The notes under the pieces: generated by a model
Told to the model about the DNA's origin: nothing
The model's input: only the letters and a program-made list of their open reading frames with translations
Databases searched by the model: none
Made by a program: the position numbers and the translations under genes
Shown here: positions 113 through 37,256 of the stretch, in pieces
How the letters are laid out: every line of letters begins with the position of its first letter
Numbering within the stretch: the first letter of the stretch is position 1
Source: a virus
Direction: 5' to 3' (one strand)
Virus record (IMG/VR): IMGVR_UViG_3300008018_000002
Length of the DNA stretch: 37,256 nucleotides

Positions 113-437
113 ATCAAGAGGAGGCACGCCGCAAATGAGTAACGAATCCAAGAAAGGCGCTGATCGGCGTTGCCTCCCTCGCCTTGTTCGGCTTGAGCGG
201 GGCGACGGGCAAGCCGTGAATCCTGCCTACTCATCGGACGGCTACGAAGAGTTTTGCCAGCGCGAAAAAGACAAGGGTCTTCGACGCGACCTGTGGGACA
301 AACTCCCAGAATTGTGGGAGCGAGAGCTTGAGTTCCGAGCCAAGTTTGAGGCGGCACTGGCAAAATTTTCTGAGCCGAACGATCAAGAGGAGGCATCCGC
401 CGACGAGAACCTCAACCGAAGCCAGAAAACTTTATGA
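3..437 (+). CDS. HTH-domain protein, 3' part of an ORF that starts at 37051 and crosses the terminal repeat (176 aa on the circular map)
   Basis: The frame is continuous with 37051..37256 through the repeat. The stop TGA overlaps the next ATG (ATGA at 434). An in-frame internal ATG at 135 is preceded by AAGAGGAGG. Confidence 0.6.
   Translation, partial: RRFDDYGRTGRPTIITGEMERAIRSIPKARKNNCAERSRGGTPQMSNESKKGADRRCLPRLVRLERGDGQAVNPAYSSDGYEEFCQREKDKGLRRDLWDKLPELWERELEFRAKFEAALAKFSEPNDQEEASADENLNRSQKTL
105..126 (+). repeat. 22-bp perfect direct repeat, copy 1 (GCCGAACGATCAAGAGGAGGCA)
   Basis: Identical 22-mer at 374-395. Translated here as AERSRGG. Confidence 0.9.
374..395 (+). repeat. 22-bp perfect direct repeat, copy 2
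   Basis: Identical to 105-126 but read in a different codon phase of the same ORF (EPNDQEEA). Confidence 0.9.
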
Positions 438-1021
438 TACCAGACACCTTTGAAGAAACGCTAGAAGGCGGATTACCATCCGCGCCTTGTTCCCCGTCTT
501 TTCGGCGAGTGTGGGCGATGCCGAACTCAGACACGTTCAGCGTGCCGCCGATGGGCGACATGGTGAAGCGATACCTGCGGACGGCAAAAGTCTCGGTCGA
601 TCCCTTCGCCCGAAACAAACGATGGGCGACCCACACGAACGATCTAAACCCCGAGACAGAAGCGGAACACCACATGGACGCTGAGGAGTTCCTATGGATG
701 CTCCGGGATCAGGGCGTGCGGTGTGATCTCGCTATCCTTGACCCGCCATACTCCCCGCGCCAAATCTCCGAATGCTACAAGGCGGCTGGCCTGTCGGTGG
801 GTATGAAGGAGACGCAAAACGCTGCGCTCTACTCCCGCGTGAAACACGCCTTGTCGCAAATCCTGACCCCGGAAGCAATCGTCCTCAGCTTCGGCTGGAA
901 CAGCTGTGGGATGGGCAAGAAATATGGTATGGAGATCATCGAAATGATGAACGTGTGCCACGGCGGGGCGCACAACGACACGATCTGCATCGCCGAAAAA
1001 CAAGAACCACGACTCCTATGA
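434..1021 (+). CDS. DNA methyltransferase, N6-adenine/N4-cytosine type (DPPY motif)
   Basis: ILDPPYSP catalytic motif. Upstream VDPFARN resembles the AdoMet-binding motif. ATGA coupling to the upstream ORF. Confidence 0.75.
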   Translation: MIPDTFEETLEGGLPSAPCSPSFRRVWAMPNSDTFSVPPMGDMVKRYLRTAKVSVDPFARNKRWATHTNDLNPETEAEHHMDAEEFLWMLRDQGVRCDLAILDPPYSPRQISECYKAAGLSVGMKETQNAALYSRVKHALSQILTPEAIVLSFGWNSCGMGKKYGMEIIEMMNVCHGGAHNDTICIAEKQEPRLL

Positions 1022-1218
1022 AATACAAATACGAAATCAACCCGTGCCGCCGTGATGGCGACAGCTTCGAGAAATGCGACGAAACAGCGACGGACATCGC
1101 CACATGGAGCGTCTATCGACGCGGAGACGATGACCTCGCGGAATGGTTGAGCGACCACGAAACGAAAGTCGCCGCCGAAACCGAGATGGAGCGTCTTCAG
1201 TCTTCGGGGAACGCTTAA
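1018..1218 (+). CDS. hypothetical protein (66 aa)
   Basis: The ATG overlaps the methyltransferase stop (ATGA). The acidic sequence looks protein-like. Confidence 0.5.
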   Translation: MKYKYEINPCRRDGDSFEKCDETATDIATWSVYRRGDDDLAEWLSDHETKVAAETEMERLQSSGNA

Positions 1219-1235
1219 ATCCTCCTACCGCTGCC

Positions 1236-2171
1236 ATGAACTCCACTCCGATAGCTCCCGCGACTCCTAACCAACTTCCCGCTGGTCGGCATATCATCCC
1301 GATCAGCGGGAAAGATTCGTTGGCGACGGCCATCATCCAGACCGCACACCAGCCCGATCTGGAATACGAATACATCTACAACGACACCCGGATGGAGCTG
1401 CCGGAAACCTACGCTTGGATAGACAATGTGGAAACGGTAATGGGGATCACAATCACCCGCGCAGGAAAGAGTCTGGCCGCGATCATCGCGGAACAAAAAA
1501 TACTGCCGTCGCCGATGACGCGATACTGCACCAAATACGCGAAAATCTTCCCGATGCGCGACTACATCGGAAAGGATGCGGCAACGATCTACATCGGAAT
1601 CCGTGCCGACGAAGATCGCCCAGGCGCTCAGGAAACCAAAAACCTCACAGTCCGCTATCCACTCAAGGAAATGGGTGTGAATCTCGCCCTCGTGTATCGC
1701 CTCGTGGAAGGCAAAGACCTAATGCCTCCAGCCTTCTTCTGGCAGCGCATCTATGACGGCGTAGTCGCCGCCCTTGGCTCTGAATCATGGATCATCACCG
1801 AACTACCAAAATGGATCTTCGACCGAACCTTCGCATGGCGCTCACGCCCCAACTGCTACATGTGCTTCTACCAACGCCGCTACGAATGGTGCGGACTGCT
1901 GGAACATCACCCGGATCTCTTCGCCGAGGCGGAAGCCATCGAATCGCGGCACGGCTACTCGGAAAACACCAAGAAACACGCCTTCCTGTGGATCGGGCAG
2001 GACATGCCACTGTCCTACATCCGCGACAACTTCGAGCGGATCGTGCAAACGCGGATCGATGCGGTCGCGAAGCTCCTGCGGAAGCGACTGCAAATGGATC
2101 TCTTCACCGATGCACTCTTCGACGAACTCGAAGCCGCTCAAACGTCCTGCGGCCTATACTGCGGGAAATGA
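1236..2171 (+). CDS. PP-loop ATPase, PAPS-reductase-like (IbrA/DndC-type)
   Basis: N-terminal IPISGKDSLATAI resembles the SGGKDS PP-loop. The C-terminal SCGLYCGK resembles the ECGLH tail of PAPS/APS reductases. This is the first ATG after the upstream stop. Confidence 0.7.
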   Translation: MNSTPIAPATPNQLPAGRHIIPISGKDSLATAIIQTAHQPDLEYEYIYNDTRMELPETYAWIDNVETVMGITITRAGKSLAAIIAEQKILPSPMTRYCTKYAKIFPMRDYIGKDAATIYIGIRADEDRPGAQETKNLTVRYPLKEMGVNLALVYRLVEGKDLMPPAFFWQRIYDGVVAALGSESWIITELPKWIFDRTFAWRSRPNCYMCFYQRRYEWCGLLEHHPDLFAEAEAIESRHGYSENTKKHAFLWIGQDMPLSYIRDNFERIVQTRIDAVAKLLRKRLQMDLFTDALFDELEAAQTSCGLYCGK

Positions 2172-4510: not shown

Positions 4511-4744
4511 ATGGAAACTGAAACACCTGAAACTGATGCTAAACACCACGAGATTGCACAACTTGATTGTAGCGATCTATACCGATACAGACACATGCAG
4601 CTACACGCCCGCAAGCTGGAACGCGATCTAAATAAATGCCAAGCAGCTCTCGTGAAGCTCGATCAAATCTACCGCGCCGGCCTATGCAATGAGCCTGTGC
4701 GCCCCGAGTGGATCGCAAAATGGATTCCCATGGAGAACAGCTAA
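4511..4744 (+). CDS. hypothetical protein (77 aa)
   Basis: ORF with an ATG start following the divergent intergenic region. Confidence 0.45.
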   Translation: METETPETDAKHHEIAQLDCSDLYRYRHMQLHARKLERDLNKCQAALVKLDQIYRAGLCNEPVRPEWIAKWIPMENS

Positions 4745-4769
4745 TTATACAGAACCAGAACCAACAACC

Positions 4770-5189
4770 ATGAGTCAAACAAAGAACTTACCCGAAATCC
4801 TCCAGAAAGTCCCGTTCGCAACGCTGATGACCGAGATCAACCGCCGAACCAGCCCATCGAAAGGAATGCACCTGATAAACGACACAGTAGCCGACACGTT
4901 CCGGCTCGACCCATACGAGCTACGTTTCGCAAGGCCGCACACACGATCAGTAGCGCCAGCCAGGTATGCAGCGATGATACTCATGAGGCGGCTAATGGAT
5001 GCGCGATGGGACGAAATCGCGACCTACTATGACGTAACCAAAGGCACAGCCGCTAAGTCGCTGGTCTATTTTGAGACCCATCGCAACCGGAGCGAGGAAT
5101 ACAGGGCGAGGGCTGAATGGGCTGAGGCACAACTACTCCAGTTAAATAATCGCAACTGCTTAAGGCAAATTGCACAGGAGCAAGCATAG
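4770..5189 (+). CDS. DnaA domain IV-like helix-turn-helix protein
   Basis: RSVAPARYAAMILMRRLMDARWDEIATYYDVTKGTAAKSLVYFE parallels the DnaA C-terminal DNA-binding domain pattern RSVAxPRQxAMxLxxxLTxxSLxxIGxxFGxRDHTTVxHA. Confidence 0.55.
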   Translation: MSQTKNLPEILQKVPFATLMTEINRRTSPSKGMHLINDTVADTFRLDPYELRFARPHTRSVAPARYAAMILMRRLMDARWDEIATYYDVTKGTAAKSLVYFETHRNRSEEYRARAEWAEAQLLQLNNRNCLRQIAQEQA

Positions 5190-5661: not shown

Positions 5662-6279
5662 ATGAACGAAACCAAACAGAAAATTGAGATGATGCGAACG
5701 GCGGATTTGATCCCCTATGCCCGCAACAGCAGGACTCACAGCGAAATGCAAGTGGCGCAGATCGCCGGAAGTATCCGAGAGTTTGGATGGACGAATCCTG
5801 TCCTGATCGACGCAGAGAACGGCATCATTGCCGGACATGGCCGGGTGATGGCAGCGCAGCTACTCGGCGCGGACAAGGTGCCGTGCATCCGGATCGAACA
5901 TCTGACTGAGACGCAGAAGCGGGCTTACATCATCGCGGACAACAAGCTGGCCCTCAACTCGGGATGGGATGAGGAGATGCTAGGACTGGAGCTGGCGGAC
6001 TTACGGGAAATGGACTTTGATCTTGGCTTGCTCGGATTCAGCGAGGAAGAGCTAGGCTCATTCGACATCGAAGAATCCGATATGCCGGATCTCTCCGACG
6101 CTGACAAGCAGCCCTTCCAGCAGATGACATTTACCGTGCATGATGAGCAGGCCGAGGATGTGGAGTCGGCAATCCGCAAGGCAAAGCAGATGGGACACGG
6201 AGAATCAGCCGTAAACGAAAACAGCAACGGCAACGCTCTCGCATTCATCTGCCAATCCTTCAACCGGGTGAATCCATGA
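5662..6279 (+). CDS. ParB-like N-terminal (nuclease/sulfiredoxin-like) domain protein
   Basis: LIPYARNSRTHSEMQVAQIAGSIREFGWTNPVLID...IIAGHGRVMAAQLLG is the typical ParB N-terminal domain signature. No partition HTH or ParA partner was seen. Confidence 0.8.
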   Translation: MNETKQKIEMMRTADLIPYARNSRTHSEMQVAQIAGSIREFGWTNPVLIDAENGIIAGHGRVMAAQLLGADKVPCIRIEHLTETQKRAYIIADNKLALNSGWDEEMLGLELADLREMDFDLGLLGFSEEELGSFDIEESDMPDLSDADKQPFQQMTFTVHDEQAEDVESAIRKAKQMGHGESAVNENSNGNALAFICQSFNRVNP

Positions 6280-7043
6280 TAAACACAAAATCAAATCCCG
6301 ATTTGCCGGATTGCCGGGTTGCTCCGATCAAGCTGGAAGATGCTCGCAAGATCACGGTTGCGAAGCACTACATGGGAACATGGCCGCAAGGCGCGAAGGT
6401 CGCCTTCGGTCTATTCAAGAAATCCAAATGCGTCGGTGTAATGGTGGCTGGCTATGCCCCAACAACAGAGAGGAAAGTTGCAAAGTGGTGCCGAAAAATC
6501 GAGAGAAGGCAATATATCGAACTGCAGCGGACATGGATCAGCGACGAGATGGGGCACAACACGGAATCATGGATGATGGCTCGCGTTATGCGAATCTTCA
6601 AGCAATCCGGGATGTGGCTCGTTATGACCCACAGCGGCGGGTGCAAGGATGATGTGGGATTCATCTTTCAGGCTTCCGGCTGGCTCTATTTCGGATGCGA
6701 TCCGTGCAATGACTTTTACGAAACCGAGCGGGGAGAATACAAGAATCTAGTAAGCGCAATGAGATTCGGTCGCGTCCCCAAGGAGATCTTAAAGCAGGGA
6801 CAGCAAGCTATCGGCGAACATCTTTTCGGAGCGGGCAAGATAGTTCATGCAAGACGACATCTCTACATCTACCCGATCAACCGAGGGCTTCGTCAGCGCC
6901 TCAAAAAACTCACCTTGCCATTTCCAAAGAATCCCGCATTATTTCGCCGTGATCAAGCATGGTCAATTAACGGAGGTGTGGACACGGGGTCTGAACTCTC
7001 ACCGGTTTCTGGGTCACTCCCGGACACCTCCGCCAAGCCATGA
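6276..7043 (+). CDS. Mom-like acyltransferase-fold protein, paralogue 1 (putative DNA base modification)
   Basis: PIKLEDARKITVAKHYMG...FGLF...CVGVM, ELQRTW...NTESWMMARVMRIF, IFQASGWLYFG and HLYIYPI...LPFPK match the family pattern I recall for phage Mu Mom relatives. ATGA coupling on both sides. Confidence 0.55.
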   Translation: MINTKSNPDLPDCRVAPIKLEDARKITVAKHYMGTWPQGAKVAFGLFKKSKCVGVMVAGYAPTTERKVAKWCRKIERRQYIELQRTWISDEMGHNTESWMMARVMRIFKQSGMWLVMTHSGGCKDDVGFIFQASGWLYFGCDPCNDFYETERGEYKNLVSAMRFGRVPKEILKQGQQAIGEHLFGAGKIVHARRHLYIYPINRGLRQRLKKLTLPFPKNPALFRRDQAWSINGGVDTGSELSPVSGSLPDTSAKP

Positions 7044-7771
7044 GCGCTAAGGACATAATCGTCCGTCCGATCAAGGCTGCGGATGCAAACAGGATCGTCA
7101 AATCCTGCCATTACTCTGGCAAGGTCGTTCCGAACTCGCAGCTCCATTTCGGAGTTTTCCTCGAAGGCAAATGCGGAGGCGCGATGCAGTTCGGGCCATC
7201 AATGCGCAAAGACCTGATCCGTCCGCTTGTAGCTGGCACCAAATGGAACGGATTCATCGAGTTGAATCGCATGGCGTTTGCTGACTGGTTGCCGCGCAAC
7301 TCCGAGAGCCGCGCCATTGCTGTTGCTATGCGGCTAATCCGCAAAACGTATCCTCACATCGATTGGATCGTCAGCTTTGCGGACGGAACGCAATGCGGAG
7401 ACGGGACAATCTACAGGGCTAGCGGATTCATTCTAACGGGGATCAAAAAGAATACGGAGCTAGTCGTGAACCCAAGGACTGGCGAGACAATGGCAACCAT
7501 GGCAGCATACCACAAAGGATTTGCATCGGAGATTTCAACATGGGAGAGGCTTTCCGGCCACATGTTCCGATACCTCTACTTCCTCAATCCGGGAGCACGA
7601 TCCCGATTGACAGTTCCGGTAATCCCGTTTAGTGAAATCCAACGCCGGGGAGCAGGTATGTATCTCGGCAAACCAAAACGCGCCGGAAGTGACACTTCGG
7701 ACACGCCAGCTTTCCAAGCTGGAGAGGGCGGCTCACTACCGACCCCGGCGCTCCATTCTCCCGAGATATGA
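7040..7771 (+). CDS. Mom-like acyltransferase-fold protein, paralogue 2
   Basis: PIKAADANRIVKSCHYSG...FGVF...CGGAM, ELNRMAF...NSESRAIAVAMRLI, VSFADG...GTIYRASGFILTG and FRYLYFL...IPFSE are colinear with paralogue 1. ATGA coupling to terS. Confidence 0.55.
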   Translation: MSAKDIIVRPIKAADANRIVKSCHYSGKVVPNSQLHFGVFLEGKCGGAMQFGPSMRKDLIRPLVAGTKWNGFIELNRMAFADWLPRNSESRAIAVAMRLIRKTYPHIDWIVSFADGTQCGDGTIYRASGFILTGIKKNTELVVNPRTGETMATMAAYHKGFASEISTWERLSGHMFRYLYFLNPGARSRLTVPVIPFSEIQRRGAGMYLGKPKRAGSDTSDTPAFQAGEGGSLPTPALHSPEI

Positions 7772-8421
7772 AACCGCCCGTAATATCCCAAGACCAGCTT
7801 GATAAGATTCATCAAGCCAATGCCGCGAACCTCATCAAGAAGGTAAAGAGCGGTAAGACGCTGACGAGCGAGGAACGCCGCATACTGGAAGGCATGGCCG
7901 GGCATGATACGGAGTCGGTCACAACTTCCCGACTCGCTGAAATCTTCGGCGTAAACCGTAAGAGCATCGCGCAATGGCGCAAGGAGGGTAAGAATGTGCC
8001 GGACAAGGTAGGCGGCAAGGAACCGCTGGCCGAGTGGCGGCGATGGTTTGAAGATCACCCGGATGCAGGACATTTCGATGGGAAGCCGAGCAAGAGCCGT
8101 GAGGAGCTTCTTGCCGTCAAGGTAGCGGTGGAGATCGACCTGCTTGAAATCAGGCGAGACAAGGAACGCGGGAAGCTGATTTCCCGTGATGAAGTCAATG
8201 AAAGGGACGTTAGTATTGCGATGGCGCTAAAGGCAATGCTGAGACGATATGAGCGCGAAATACCGACATTATGCCTTGGACTACCACTTACCCAGTCAAT
8301 GCCTATCGTGAAGACCAAGGCGCGAGAGCTACAAGACAGGCTATCAGACATGACTGGCGAGTTCTGGGGGAATAACCCTGAATCCAATGAGCGAACCGTT
8401 TTGCCGCACAATCAAATCTGA
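7768..8421 (+). CDS. terS: terminase small subunit (Nu1-like HTH)
   Basis: LAEIFGVNRKSIAQWRKEGKNVP is an HTH, followed by a coiled-coil-like segment. Lies directly upstream of, and overlapping, terL. Confidence 0.7.
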   Translation: MKPPVISQDQLDKIHQANAANLIKKVKSGKTLTSEERRILEGMAGHDTESVTTSRLAEIFGVNRKSIAQWRKEGKNVPDKVGGKEPLAEWRRWFEDHPDAGHFDGKPSKSREELLAVKVAVEIDLLEIRRDKERGKLISRDEVNERDVSIAMALKAMLRRYEREIPTLCLGLPLTQSMPIVKTKARELQDRLSDMTGEFWGNNPESNERTVLPHNQI

Positions 8422-10135
8422 CTCCGACCTGCACCCGGCAGACTGGTGCGCGGAGTATGTCCACGTTGAGAACAGCGAGCGCGGGAGTAAGTTTGACCCG
8501 TCACAAACCCGATGGTGGAGGAAACCGATGGGATGTTATGCGGACTACGAGACGCGAAACATGGTCTGCATCATGCCGACCGGAGCGGGCAAGTCCACGT
8601 TCTTTGAGGCGATCAACTGCTGGATCGTTTCTGAGGCTCCCGGCTCCGTGCTGTATGCGTCCATCACCGATCCGAACGCGGAGCTTTGGGGAGAGACACG
8701 ATTCCTAAAGGCCGCGAAGAAATGCACGCCGCTGGATCACCTATGGCCAAAGAACCAGCGCAATGCGGTTCGGAAGGATGCGATCATATGGGCGCACATG
8801 TTCATGGTTCTAGGCGGTGCGAACATGTCCAACTTCCAGGAAGTCTCGATCACCTACGGGCAGGGGGACGAGGCATGGGCATGGAAGCCGGGCATGGTTC
8901 GGGAGTGGAATGCCCGATCCCACAACCGCGAAAATCGCAAATTCACGCTCGCATCGCAAGCCGGCATGATCGCCACCGAGGACGGCACGGGTGAGACTTC
9001 AGAGCTTCATGCCGAGCATGACAAATGCCGGAAATGGGATTTCGCTTGGAAGTGCGAATGTGGGCATGTCCAACCGTTCCGCTTTGAGCAGTTGAAATAT
9101 CCAGACAAAGGCACCGATCAGGAAAGGGCGGATGCGGTTGTGCGAGTCTGCGAAGGATGCGGGAAGGAACACGCCGACACTCACGAAAACAGAAGGGCGC
9201 TGCATGACAGCTACGAGGAAAACGACGGGTATCTCTGTGTGAACCCGGACGGGCAGCGCGGATACGAGGGCTTCCACCTCGACGCGGGCGGCATCTGGTG
9301 GATTCCGTGGGCGGAGGACGTATTGCAAAAGATCGCGGCGGACAAAGCGGCGGCGATGGGAGACTTTACCCAGCTTAGGCAATGGACGCAGAAGAGGCGG
9401 GCGGTCGGCTGGTCTGACAACCTGCAAGCCTCGGAAGTCACCCTAAAACCATCCGGCTACACACGCGCCGATTTCAGCGAGGGGCAAAAGATTGATGGCG
9501 AGGCAGTCCGGTTCTGCACGATTGACGCGGGCGGAGATCATTTCTGGCTAAGAATCCGCGCCTGGTGCCAGGGTGGAGAATCCAAGGGTTTGTTTTTCGG
9601 ATACATCAACAGCGAGGCGGAGTGTGATGAAATCCGGGAGCGTTACGGGGTGTTACCAAAGCATACTTTTCTGGATGTTGGATTCGACCAAGAGCGCATG
9701 GCAGGGCTTATCGTGCAATACGGCTGGCAGGGCATGAAAGGGGATGGCAATAAAAAATCCGGGTGGGATTGGCCGATCAAGAGTGACCCGAACAAGAAAG
9801 AAATCCGGCTCTACTCTAAACGCTGGTATGCACTCAGCAAGGAAAAGAAGCAAGCTACCTGCTGGCACATCGCCACCGAGCCGATTCAATACATCCTACA
9901 GCGGCTCATGTCCGGAGAGGGTGCTGAATGGCTTGTCGAGGACGATGCGCCGCCATCATACGCCAAGCACCTAAACAACGAGCGGTTGGAAACAGCCAAG
10001 GATTCGCGAGGGCGGGAGGTCAAGAAGTGGACGCGCCGGGGAGCGCAGCACGGCAGGGATACGGAGGTATATCAAGTCGCCGCCGCCCTAATGTTCCGAA
10101 TTTTCACACCACCAAAAACAACCGAAGATGAGTAA
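8387..10135 (+). CDS. terL: terminase large subunit, GpA (lambda) type
   Basis: Walker A IMPTGAGKST. Cys4 cluster CECGH...CEGCGKEH, as in GpA-family terminases. 582 aa, followed by lambda-like head gene order. Confidence 0.9.
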   Translation: MSEPFCRTIKSDSDLHPADWCAEYVHVENSERGSKFDPSQTRWWRKPMGCYADYETRNMVCIMPTGAGKSTFFEAINCWIVSEAPGSVLYASITDPNAELWGETRFLKAAKKCTPLDHLWPKNQRNAVRKDAIIWAHMFMVLGGANMSNFQEVSITYGQGDEAWAWKPGMVREWNARSHNRENRKFTLASQAGMIATEDGTGETSELHAEHDKCRKWDFAWKCECGHVQPFRFEQLKYPDKGTDQERADAVVRVCEGCGKEHADTHENRRALHDSYEENDGYLCVNPDGQRGYEGFHLDAGGIWWIPWAEDVLQKIAADKAAAMGDFTQLRQWTQKRRAVGWSDNLQASEVTLKPSGYTRADFSEGQKIDGEAVRFCTIDAGGDHFWLRIRAWCQGGESKGLFFGYINSEAECDEIRERYGVLPKHTFLDVGFDQERMAGLIVQYGWQGMKGDGNKKSGWDWPIKSDPNKKEIRLYSKRWYALSKEKKQATCWHIATEPIQYILQRLMSGEGAEWLVEDDAPPSYAKHLNNERLETAKDSRGREVKKWTRRGAQHGRDTEVYQVAAALMFRIFTPPKTTEDE

Positions 10136-37054: not shown

Positions 37055-37256
37055 CTCCCACCGAATACAAATCCGCGTGCGAAGCAACTGGTCGCACGCT
37101 CCAGGAAATCGCCGACATTCTCGGGGTCGCGCTCTCTACCCTCTACCGTCGATTTGACGATTACGGGCGCACAGGTCGCCCGACGATCATCACGGGAGAG
37201 ATGGAAAGGGCGATCCGATCCATCCCAAAAGCCCGCAAAAATAATTGTGCCGAACG
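37051..37256 (+). CDS. HTH-domain protein, 5' part (continues at 3..437 across the repeat)
   Basis: ATGA overlap with the upstream stop. GRTLQEIADILGVALSTLYRRF is an HTH. The ORF is open to the window end. Confidence 0.6.
   Translation, partial: MTPTEYKSACEATGRTLQEIADILGVALSTLYRRFDDYGRTGRPTIITGEMERAIRSIPKARKNNCAE
37145..37256. repeat. terminal direct repeat, right copy
   Basis: Identical to 1-112. Confidence 0.95.

Follow-up and report, generated by a model that had tools for sequence, protein, structure and literature searches.

The closest described relative of the system considered here is Mom of phage Mu, which transfers glycine from Gly-tRNA(Gly) onto N6 of adenine in double-stranded DNA (dsDNA); a rearrangement on the base then yields N6-carbamoylmethyl-adenine (Silva et al. 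2026, PMC13219725). The system itself lies in a viral DNA of 37,256 nucleotides, IMG/VR record IMGVR_UViG_3300008018_000002 (the whole stretch is referred to as the window), and includes two tandem Mom-like genes, P1 and P2, each associated with a tRNA-like RNA gene, together with a gene for a ParB/Srx-like protein. Mu Mom rejects both Ala-tRNA(Ala) and mischarged Gly-tRNA(Ala) (PMC13219725) and therefore reads both the tRNA body and its amino acid. The enzyme forms a tight dimer, and a W48A substitution leaves it monomeric and with almost no activity; the essential residues are R111, S124 and R151, further important ones are D149, H58, Y59, Y159 and W181, and a helix-turn-helix-like insertion is required (PMC13219725). 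N6-acyl adenine, in turn, was calculated to be unstable and to clash with base pairing (PMC13219725). The glycine transfer and on-base rearrangement reported in PMC13219725 replace the older acyl or methylcarbamoyl view of Mom, which a preliminary description of the window had adopted.

Several RNAs provide further points of comparison. The minimal architecture charged by alanyl-tRNA synthetase (AlaRS) is an acceptor stem plus a T-arm, as seen in minihelix substrates and in the tRNA-like domain of transfer-messenger RNA (tmRNA). Genomes of plant RNA viruses can have aminoacylatable tRNA-like 3' ends, which act in cis in replication and translation. In staphylococci, non-proteogenic tRNA-Gly species keep the determinants for glycyl-tRNA synthetase (GlyRS), have TGC or TGT T-loops, bind EF-Tu poorly and feed the Fem transferases; such tRNAs are stated to be known from staphylococci only (PMC7826273). 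Bacterial glycine identity is specified by U73, G1-C72, C2-G71, G3-C70, C35 and C36, and alanine identity by G3·U70, A73, G2-C71 and G4-C69, with no anticodon component; serine identity, also anticodon-independent, depends on G1-C72, G2-C71, G73 and a long variable arm (PMC9976931). G3·U70 is the rule of AlaRS recognition (PMC9976931, PMC6451123).

P1 and P2 are both members of the Mom family. They are 26% identical over 209 residues (BLASTP, E = 1e-16), score 124 and 176 bits, respectively, against PF25680 (cutoff 27.1; profile positions 2-202 of 202), and both match phrog_1384 and, by sequence, Mu Mom 8BV8 (P2 at 2.4e-28). AlphaFold2 (AF2) models, with mean predicted local distance difference test (pLDDT) values of 84.8 for P1 and 79.6 for P2, also had 8BV8 as their top Foldseek match (E = 3e-14, template modelling (TM) score 0.69-0.73 for P1; E = 8e-19, TM 0.70-0.76 for P2), and generic GNAT proteins followed at 1e-6 or weaker. 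In the models, the insertion after the GNAT core contains helices at 158-184 in P1 and is shorter in P2. The folded domains comprise approximately residues 1-231 of P1 and 1-206 of P2; residues 232-255 of P1 are the translation of an embedded RNA element, with tail pLDDT below 50, and residues 214-239 of P2 are a translated tRNA-like gene within a segment (207-243) that is likewise below 50. The preliminary description had proposed two tandem, diverged Mom-like paralogues at positions 6276-7771, and the profile, sequence and fold matches, together with the mutual identity, establish this far beyond chance. All motif blocks listed in it are present (PIKL/PIKA, HYMG/HYSG, FGLF/FGVF, CVGVM/CGGAM, ELQR/ELNR, NTES/NSES, IFQASGW/IYRASGF, LYIY/RYLY and LPFP/IPFS), as are THSGGCKDD in P1 and VSFADGTQCGD in P2. 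The alignments and monomer structure predictions that it had suggested as checks place both open reading frames (ORFs) in the Mom family and not in an unrelated one.

Residue conservation was compared at positions given here in Mu numbering. The essential R111 and S124, as well as H58 and Y59, are kept in both proteins, and these four residues together with N121 and E123 are invariant in 120 P2-type sequences and kept in 71-73 of 73 P1-type sequences. Position D149 is Asp in 120/120 members of the P2 family and Gly in 73/73 members of the P1 family, and R151 is Thr in 119/120 and Cys in 73/73. Tyr occupies position Y159 in the P2 family, and Phe or Tyr in the P1 family, with Phe in the window's clade; W48 is conserved in neither family. 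Since Thr is found at position 151 across the P2 family and in Mom of a cultured Psychrobacter phage, R151 is not a family-wide requirement; missing from the whole P2 family, it was dropped as a test of activity. P1 has a private invariant motif (T118, G121, G122, C123, K124 and D126), in which THSGGCKDD replaces the D149/R151 loop, and at least 40 invariant positions across sequences as low as 40% identity. P1 thus appears to be a conserved enzyme, with the loop remodelled where the published model has the flipped adenine meeting the tRNA 3' end. Shared with Mu Mom are the Pfam family, the fold, the six conserved residues, the insertion after the GNAT core and, by homology, presumably an aminoacyl-tRNA-dependent modification of adenine N6 in dsDNA. 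Mu differs in that its mom gene is single, is under Com/Dam/C regulation and has neither a linked tRNA-like gene nor a ParB partner, whereas the present locus has two paralogues, each with an RNA gene, neither with R151 and P1 also without D149.

One locus (L016; loci in the set are designated by L numbers) has lost P2 but still keeps the DNA of its last ~130 nucleotides, with compensatory changes in a hairpin. The same region of the window, the 3' end of P2, folds as a cloverleaf with a UCCA end. This element has G1-C72, C2-G71, G3-C70, U73, an anticodon loop UUUCCAA (anticodon UCC) and an encoded CCA, as well as a bulged A in the T-stem and a non-canonical T-loop, CUCACUA. ARAGORN made no tRNA calls in the window, and Rfam gave no match at E ≤ 1 in positions 6200-8000, where canonical tRNA (RF00005) was not detected. 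Thirteen other loci do yield ARAGORN calls of tRNA-Gly (UCC, ACC or CCC), each at the P2-type gene's 3' end. In 11 of the called copies, pairing was 99.6%, with compensatory changes in 14/21 pairs, against 32-42% in slid controls. A covariance model, R1, built from the called P2-linked copies with the window left out, matches the window element end to end. It also matches 59/66 sources of the P1-retrieved set (the misses being mostly contig ends, plus L044 and Mu) and 55/55 P2-retrieved loci, in every case where the Mom gene or the gene pair ends. Altogether, a tRNA-Gly-like cloverleaf is found beside this Mom clade in more than 110 loci.

The relation of this element to the reading frame is loose. 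Of 96 loci, 62 have a Mom ORF that reads through the element; the stop codon falls within the element in another 19 and precedes it in 15. Seven inverted copies, on the opposite strand, still adjoin Mom (the tRNA-like gene or genes of L049, L050, L053, L055, L059, L130 and L131), and in loci of reversed gene order the tRNA-Gly-like element follows P1. The varying stop and the inverted or relocated copies imply that the conserved object is the RNA gene and the C-terminal tail its incidental translation. A conserved protein motif was considered for the tails 'GSLPDTSA' and 'GGSLPTPAL' and ruled out on these grounds, the existence of intergenic copies and the low pLDDT.

In 80 unique copies, G1, C2, U73, C35, C36 and the bulged T-stem A are present throughout, G3 occurs in 71, and CCA is encoded in 49. 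Other positions vary: of the 62 loops with seven nucleotides, 35 have U at position 33 (18 loops have another length); at position 34, U occurs 40 times, A 16 times and C 6 times, and G never; the D-loop has GG in 38/80, the D-arm being missing in 13; and TGC opens the T-loop of 30 copies, whereas 23 begin with TTC and 13 with CTC (CUC), which is the window's form. One single-P2 clade (L117-L123, L128, L133) has a D-arm-less form of 67-69 nucleotides that retains the acceptor stem, the NCC loop, the bulged-A T-arm and UCCA. All six elements of the bacterial tRNA-Gly identity set are present in the window copy. Judged from sequence, the conserved set of the P2-linked RNA appears to be the GlyRS identity set, and the lost features those needed for decoding. 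In this respect it resembles the staphylococcal tRNA-Gly that serves FmhB, FemA and FemB: GlyRS determinants are kept, the D and T regions deviate (TGC, not TTC), and paralogous transferases work outside translation. The staphylococcal system differs in being cellular, in acting on peptidoglycan precursors, in using glycine only and in having full cloverleaves, whereas the phage RNAs are virus-encoded, physically fused to enzyme genes, presumably directed to DNA and accompanied by a second RNA identity set.

The possibility that the same tRNA-Gly-like element occurs at the 3' end of P1 was ruled out, as R1 gives no match there and a separate RNA family was found. This family has two types. Type A, present in most P1 lineages, is 47-59 nucleotides long and consists of a 7-bp acceptor stem, a small hairpin and a canonical T-arm (UUCGAAC), with no anticodon arm. 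Approximately 13 different acceptor sequences all have G1-C72, G2-C71, G3·U70, G4-C69 and A73. In 15 aligned copies, pair 3:70 is G·U in 15/15, whereas covariation is seen in pairs 5-7 and in the T-stem (97.8% paired; score for covariation 0.77 versus 0.18). Type A therefore seems to carry the identity elements of bacterial AlaRS, none of which lies in the anticodon. ARAGORN called no tmRNA for type A elements. With AlaRS minihelices and tmRNA, type A shares the acceptor stem plus T-arm, G3·U70, A73 and the lack of an anticodon; in contrast to tmRNA, it has no mRNA-like domain and forms stand-alone genes tied to a Mom paralogue. The phage elements also share with the plant virus structures the viral mimicry of tRNA, a CCA end, synthetase identity elements and a location at the 3' end of a coding region, but they belong to a DNA phage, are found in both orientations and accompany an aminoacyl transferase.

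Type B, found in the window's lineage, is a 64-nucleotide, four-helix form with a variable pair 3:70 (A-U in the window). The window copy combines a 7-bp acceptor stem (GGAGGUG/CACCUCC), a D-like hairpin whose loop reads ACGGG, another hairpin without a conserved anticodon, a T-like arm, a one-nucleotide A spacer, a discriminator G and an encoded CCA. G1-C72, G2-C71 and G73 occur in 9/9 copies, which lack a conserved anticodon and have a hairpin directly 5' of the T-arm. In these 9 sequences, from which the structure itself was derived, 97.8% of cells pair and 11/20 pairs show compensatory changes, against 38-52% in slid controls. Within-clade alignments were needed for such analyses; a mixed-clade RNAalifold run on P1 3' ends, poorly aligned, gave the T-arm only.

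Models R2 (type A) and R3 (type B) track P1. R3 had 21 matches, exclusively in P1-containing loci (0/36 P2-only loci), and R2 had 44 matches in P1-containing loci and none in 54 P2-only loci; the one R2 match among the 55 P2-retrieved loci, L124, is in a locus that has P1. Together, the two models cover 60/64 P1-containing sources, missing two contig ends as well as L061 and L066. The type B element of the window is matched by neither R1 nor R2. Both RNA types are inverted together as a cassette downstream of P2 in L053, L055 and L059, and in L144 the type B element is wholly intergenic. Marine contigs from ENA, which were outside model building, carry type A where P1 stops and the Gly-like RNA where P2 ends, and in out-of-sample ENA and Logan contigs both RNAs occur at the predicted positions.

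With A3-U70 and G73, the type B element of the window does not have the AlaRS identity set (G3·U70, A73, G2-C71 and G4-C69). The absence of a conserved anticodon in type B calls for an anticodon-independent synthetase. Leucyl-tRNA synthetase needs A73 and AlaRS needs G3·U70, whereas seryl-tRNA synthetase uses G73, G1-C72, G2-C71 and the variable arm, a role that the type B hairpin next to the T-arm might fill; this leaves serine by elimination. The amino acid of the window RNA would then be neither alanine nor glycine, with serine as a weak best guess. P1 proteins that accompany type A and type B RNAs differ at eight nearly perfectly partitioned positions, six of which are in or next to active-site motifs (83, 101, 120, 127, 129 and 131, the last corresponding to Mu Y159); this pattern would fit a coupled switch of enzyme and RNA.

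The two paralogues differ greatly in distribution. P2 belongs to a mainstream family with at least 8000 homologues, whereas the P1 subfamily comprises 74 clusters of 42-86% identity. Among 1.84 billion representatives at 50% identity, P1 has 4 at E ≤ 1e-30, and the Mom family 612 at E ≤ 1e-3; no P1-type gene was found in 50,697 GenBank phage records. In 65 of 70 viral contigs with a P1 relative, a P2-type gene is directly adjacent on the same strand, in the order P1, P2 in 62 contigs and in the opposite order in L064, L065 and L068. A contig boundary cuts four of the five others, leaving L016 as the only truly P2-less locus. There (636-1700), P2 is internally deleted to ~13 N-terminal codons and a frameshift, whereas P1 persists along with a type B RNA (1404-1469) and with the tRNA-Gly-like gene (1555-1630). 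The pair also occurs in four contigs of metagenome-assembled genomes, including Caulobacter, Microbacteriaceae and Thalassospiraceae, and in independent ENA and Logan contigs. P2 is found alone in 36 evaluable loci of 60 that were P2-retrieved, at up to 80% identity to the window P2. In the P2 tree, these single-P2 loci nest within paired clades, which indicates that P1 has been lost repeatedly and P2 almost never. P1 and P2 of the same pair diverge together (Pearson 0.83, slope 0.99, Mantel 0/2000); P1 evolves as slowly as P2 and is not decaying.

We consider these data to be best explained, with somewhat better than even confidence, by a pair of tRNA-dependent aminoacyl transferases that each have a donor RNA of their own, encoded by the virus. 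The locus would then be a four-part DNA-hypermodification module, consisting of the ParB/Srx-like gene, P1 with its mini tRNA-like RNA and P2 with its tRNA-Gly-like RNA. By homology, P2 would be a canonical Mom that moves glycine from glycyl-tRNA to adenine N6 in dsDNA to give N6-carbamoylmethyl-adenine; unlike Mu, its clade would supply its own donor, the tRNA-Gly-like RNA. As this RNA keeps what GlyRS needs and has lost what the ribosome and EF-Tu need, we propose that it provides a pool of activated glycine reserved for Mom. P1 would be the other aminoacyl transferase, itself competent in catalysis, with its acceptor/donor loop remodelled and with its own RNA, an Ala-identity, anticodon-less, minihelix-like donor in most lineages and a G73 variant in the window's lineage. 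P1 and P2 may thus write two different amino-acid-derived adducts on phage DNA, which would broaden escape from restriction. Two target specificities had been among the options raised in the preliminary description; two specificities are indeed suggested, as two different aminoacyl donors and not merely as two DNA targets. Its most informative omissions are the two embedded tRNA-like genes and the constant ParB/Srx partner. A broader version of the proposal, in which a widespread phage clade has private, translation-insulated donors and enzyme and RNA have co-diversified into a small 'code' for the DNA-borne amino acid, is more tentative, and we give it rather less than an even chance.

The computation covers membership in the family, conservation of residues, co-inheritance, the structure and covariation of the RNAs, and one-to-one enzyme-RNA associations; from these we infer charging of the RNAs by host synthetases, use of the neighbouring RNA by each enzyme and the product chemistry. 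Several observations weigh against two dedicated donors. Host tRNAs suffice for Mu Mom, and the chemistry thus demands no private tRNA. P1 lacks D149, a residue important in Mu and invariant in the P2 family. The RNA copies of the window are the most degenerate, with T-loops CUCACUA and GUCACUC, and are missed by ARAGORN and Rfam; its P1-linked RNA is without the Ala identity set and may escape charging altogether. The partition of P1 residues between types A and B is confounded by phylogeny. Finally, P1 with its RNA but without P2 was seen once, in the deletion variant L016, whereas an independent donor and target would predict more such cases; the dependence of P1 on P2 is the main point that the two-donor model leaves unexplained.

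That dependence would be accounted for by sequential chemistry of the Fem type, in line with the two successive acyl-transfer steps named as an option in the preliminary description. Here P2 would place glycine on adenine N6, and P1 would extend this product with another amino acid, taken from its own RNA donor, to give a dipeptidyl or otherwise extended adduct. P1 would be expected almost never without P2, and P2 often alone, as observed, and the loss of D149 together with a gain of Gly-Gly in the flipped-adenine loop fits a different, bulkier or more nucleophilic acceptor. FmhB, FemA and FemB are a precedent for paralogous tRNA-dependent transferases acting in series (PMC7826273). The chemistry is less accommodating: the rearranged product ends in a carboxamide, which is no good nucleophile, and a trapped glycyl intermediate would be an unstable N6-acyl adenine. 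L016, moreover, keeps P1 and both RNAs without P2. We regard sequential transfer as unlikely.

The same dependence, along with the overlapping start and stop codons, the co-divergence of the two proteins and the tight dimer of Mu Mom, whose monomeric W48A variant is nearly inactive, could also reflect an obligate heterodimer, with P1 as a partner subunit that retunes the DNA sequence or donor specificity of P2 and has no activity of its own. Linkage alone would give co-divergence, however, W48 is unconserved in both families, and an RNA gene or a spacer of 36-64 nucleotides (268 in L001-L005) parts the two ORFs in many lineages. Such a heterodimer, which we hold to be quite unlikely, is compatible with two dedicated donors. 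The related suggestion of the preliminary description, a heteromer with a non-catalytic subunit, is disfavoured by the retention in P1 of R111, S124, H58, Y59, N121 and E123, its own motif and its slow evolution.

Alternatively, the RNAs might not be donors but ordinary phage tRNAs or decayed relics of tRNAs, decoys for defences that target tRNAs, ribonuclease (RNase) P/Z signals or tRNA mimics for autoregulation of Mom. Mom is toxic and tightly regulated in Mu, and 62/96 ORFs read through the RNA; in these, excision by RNase P/Z would strip the mom mRNA of its stop codon, a loss that could limit toxic Mom. The degenerate T-loops of the window copies also agree with a non-donor role. Against these uses, inverted copies are unable to act in cis on mom mRNA, and type A, having no anticodon, cannot take part in decoding; conservation falls on two synthetase identity sets and not on features for decoding. 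Each RNA type strictly tracks one paralogue, and compensatory changes are abundant. These points make a non-donor role very improbable. That P1 is a decaying duplicate or pseudoenzyme without a function of its own, as its repeated loss and the absence of D149, R151 and, in the window's clade, Y159 might suggest, is hardly credible in view of a divergence rate equal to that of P2, the at least 40 invariant positions and private motif, a confident AF2 model and a dedicated, covarying RNA.

The cultured Psychrobacter phage vB_PmaS_Y8A has, in order, ParB, Mom, two tandem tRNA-Gly-like elements and terminase small subunit (TerS) genes; the elements are unannotated (OQ059336 7786-7853 and 7858-7926; L136 4647-4714 and 4719-4787), and the phage's own paper reports zero tRNA genes. 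This phage has a second, unlinked Mom-like gene, ORF69 (L146 794-1558), which belongs to a third lineage; its identity to Mu, P1 and P2 is 24-29%. No linked tRNA-like element was found at Mu mom or at four distant cultured Mom-like genes (Liebe, SerPounce, Porphyromonas 013a and VSiP), which suggests that the RNA link is specific to this clade. Full-text literature searches gave no report of tandem Mom paralogues or of mom-linked tRNA-like genes, and the main text of the Mom paper (PMC13219725; supplements were outside the search) mentions neither.

The features of the module are collected in Table 1. The window represents a tailed-phage genome with genes for a methyltransferase, a 3'-phosphoadenosine 5'-phosphosulfate (PAPS)-reductase-like protein, terminase, portal, major capsid protein and a DnaB-like helicase.

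Table 1. Coordinates of the Mom module and of other features in the window.
Feature	Position	Strand	Remarks
DNA methyltransferase	434-1018		phrog_11619
PAPS-reductase-like gene	1143-2168		phrog_424
Upstream ORF	4689-5189		Bac_DnaA_C (DnaA C-terminal helix-turn-helix), weak, 5e-06, below cutoff
ParB/Srx-like gene	5662..6279	+	phrog_620 5e-56; Pfam ParB_N 24 bits, below threshold
P1, divergent Mom paralogue with THSGGCKDD	6276..7043	+	255 aa; PF25680 7e-36
P1-linked mini tRNA-like RNA, type B	6972..7035	+	64 nt; model R3 81.5 bits
P2, mainstream Mom-type enzyme with SFADGTQCGDG	7040..7771	+	243 aa; PF25680 8.5e-52
P2-linked tRNA-Gly-like gene	7680..7755	+	76 nt; model R1 63.2 bits, E = 4e-15
Terminase small subunit (context; downstream boundary of the module)	7768..8421	+	phrog_57 1.3e-11
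TerL	8387-10135
Hairpin GCGUGCG...CGCACGC followed by UCCA	37075-37103		partial match to tRNA-Gly-like model, 10.6 bits, E = 0.65

The ParB/Srx-like gene, whose stop overlaps the start of P1, also matches the N-terminal domain of phrog_498 methyltransferases. As in those ParB-methyltransferase fusions, a ParB/Srx domain is located directly upstream of a modification enzyme; unlike in the fusions, it is a separate protein here. A homologue adjoins the first Mom gene in essentially all loci, paired and single, and in the ENA contigs as well, and the protein may load onto DNA or target it for Mom. P1 and P2 overlap in the window by ATGA; overlaps of 1-22 nucleotides occur in about 40% of loci, and elsewhere the ORFs are divided in many lineages by the RNA gene or the spacer mentioned above. 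No natural P1-P2 fusion was seen. The 268-nucleotide insert of the closest relatives, L001-L005 (L005 6768-7043), which is not in the window, holds a 91-aa ORF on the + strand or a 75-aa ORF on the - strand. In L030 (3550-4494), a further, very weak Mom-like ORF (59 bits, P1 profile) lies ~1.5 kilobases upstream of the pair. The methyltransferase and PAPS-reductase-like genes of the window are located a few kilobases upstream of the module, and a PAPS reductase gene is also present in the Psychrobacter phage that shares the ParB-Mom-tRNA module. The hairpin match near the end of the window is probably due to chance.

Mom has so far been known to use a charged tRNA on DNA (2026), with glycine and a host tRNA only. 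If phage-borne dedicated donor RNAs are confirmed, they would be the second example of non-proteogenic tRNAs, until now limited to the staphylococcal cell wall, and the first viral one. Standard annotation misses these RNA genes and reports conserved C-terminal protein tails instead, and a published phage genome declared to be tRNA-free (vB_PmaS_Y8A) carries two tRNA-like elements. The Mom family may have diversified to other amino acids, and adenine adducts, for example alanine-derived ones, may exist in environmental phage DNA; such adducts would affect restriction escape, sequencing and modification calling. The system is a testable case of co-evolution between an enzyme, a tRNA and synthetase identity outside translation. 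Overall, the sequences may point to a potentially new principle: virus-encoded, translation-insulated and partly anticodon-less donor RNAs within the Mom system.

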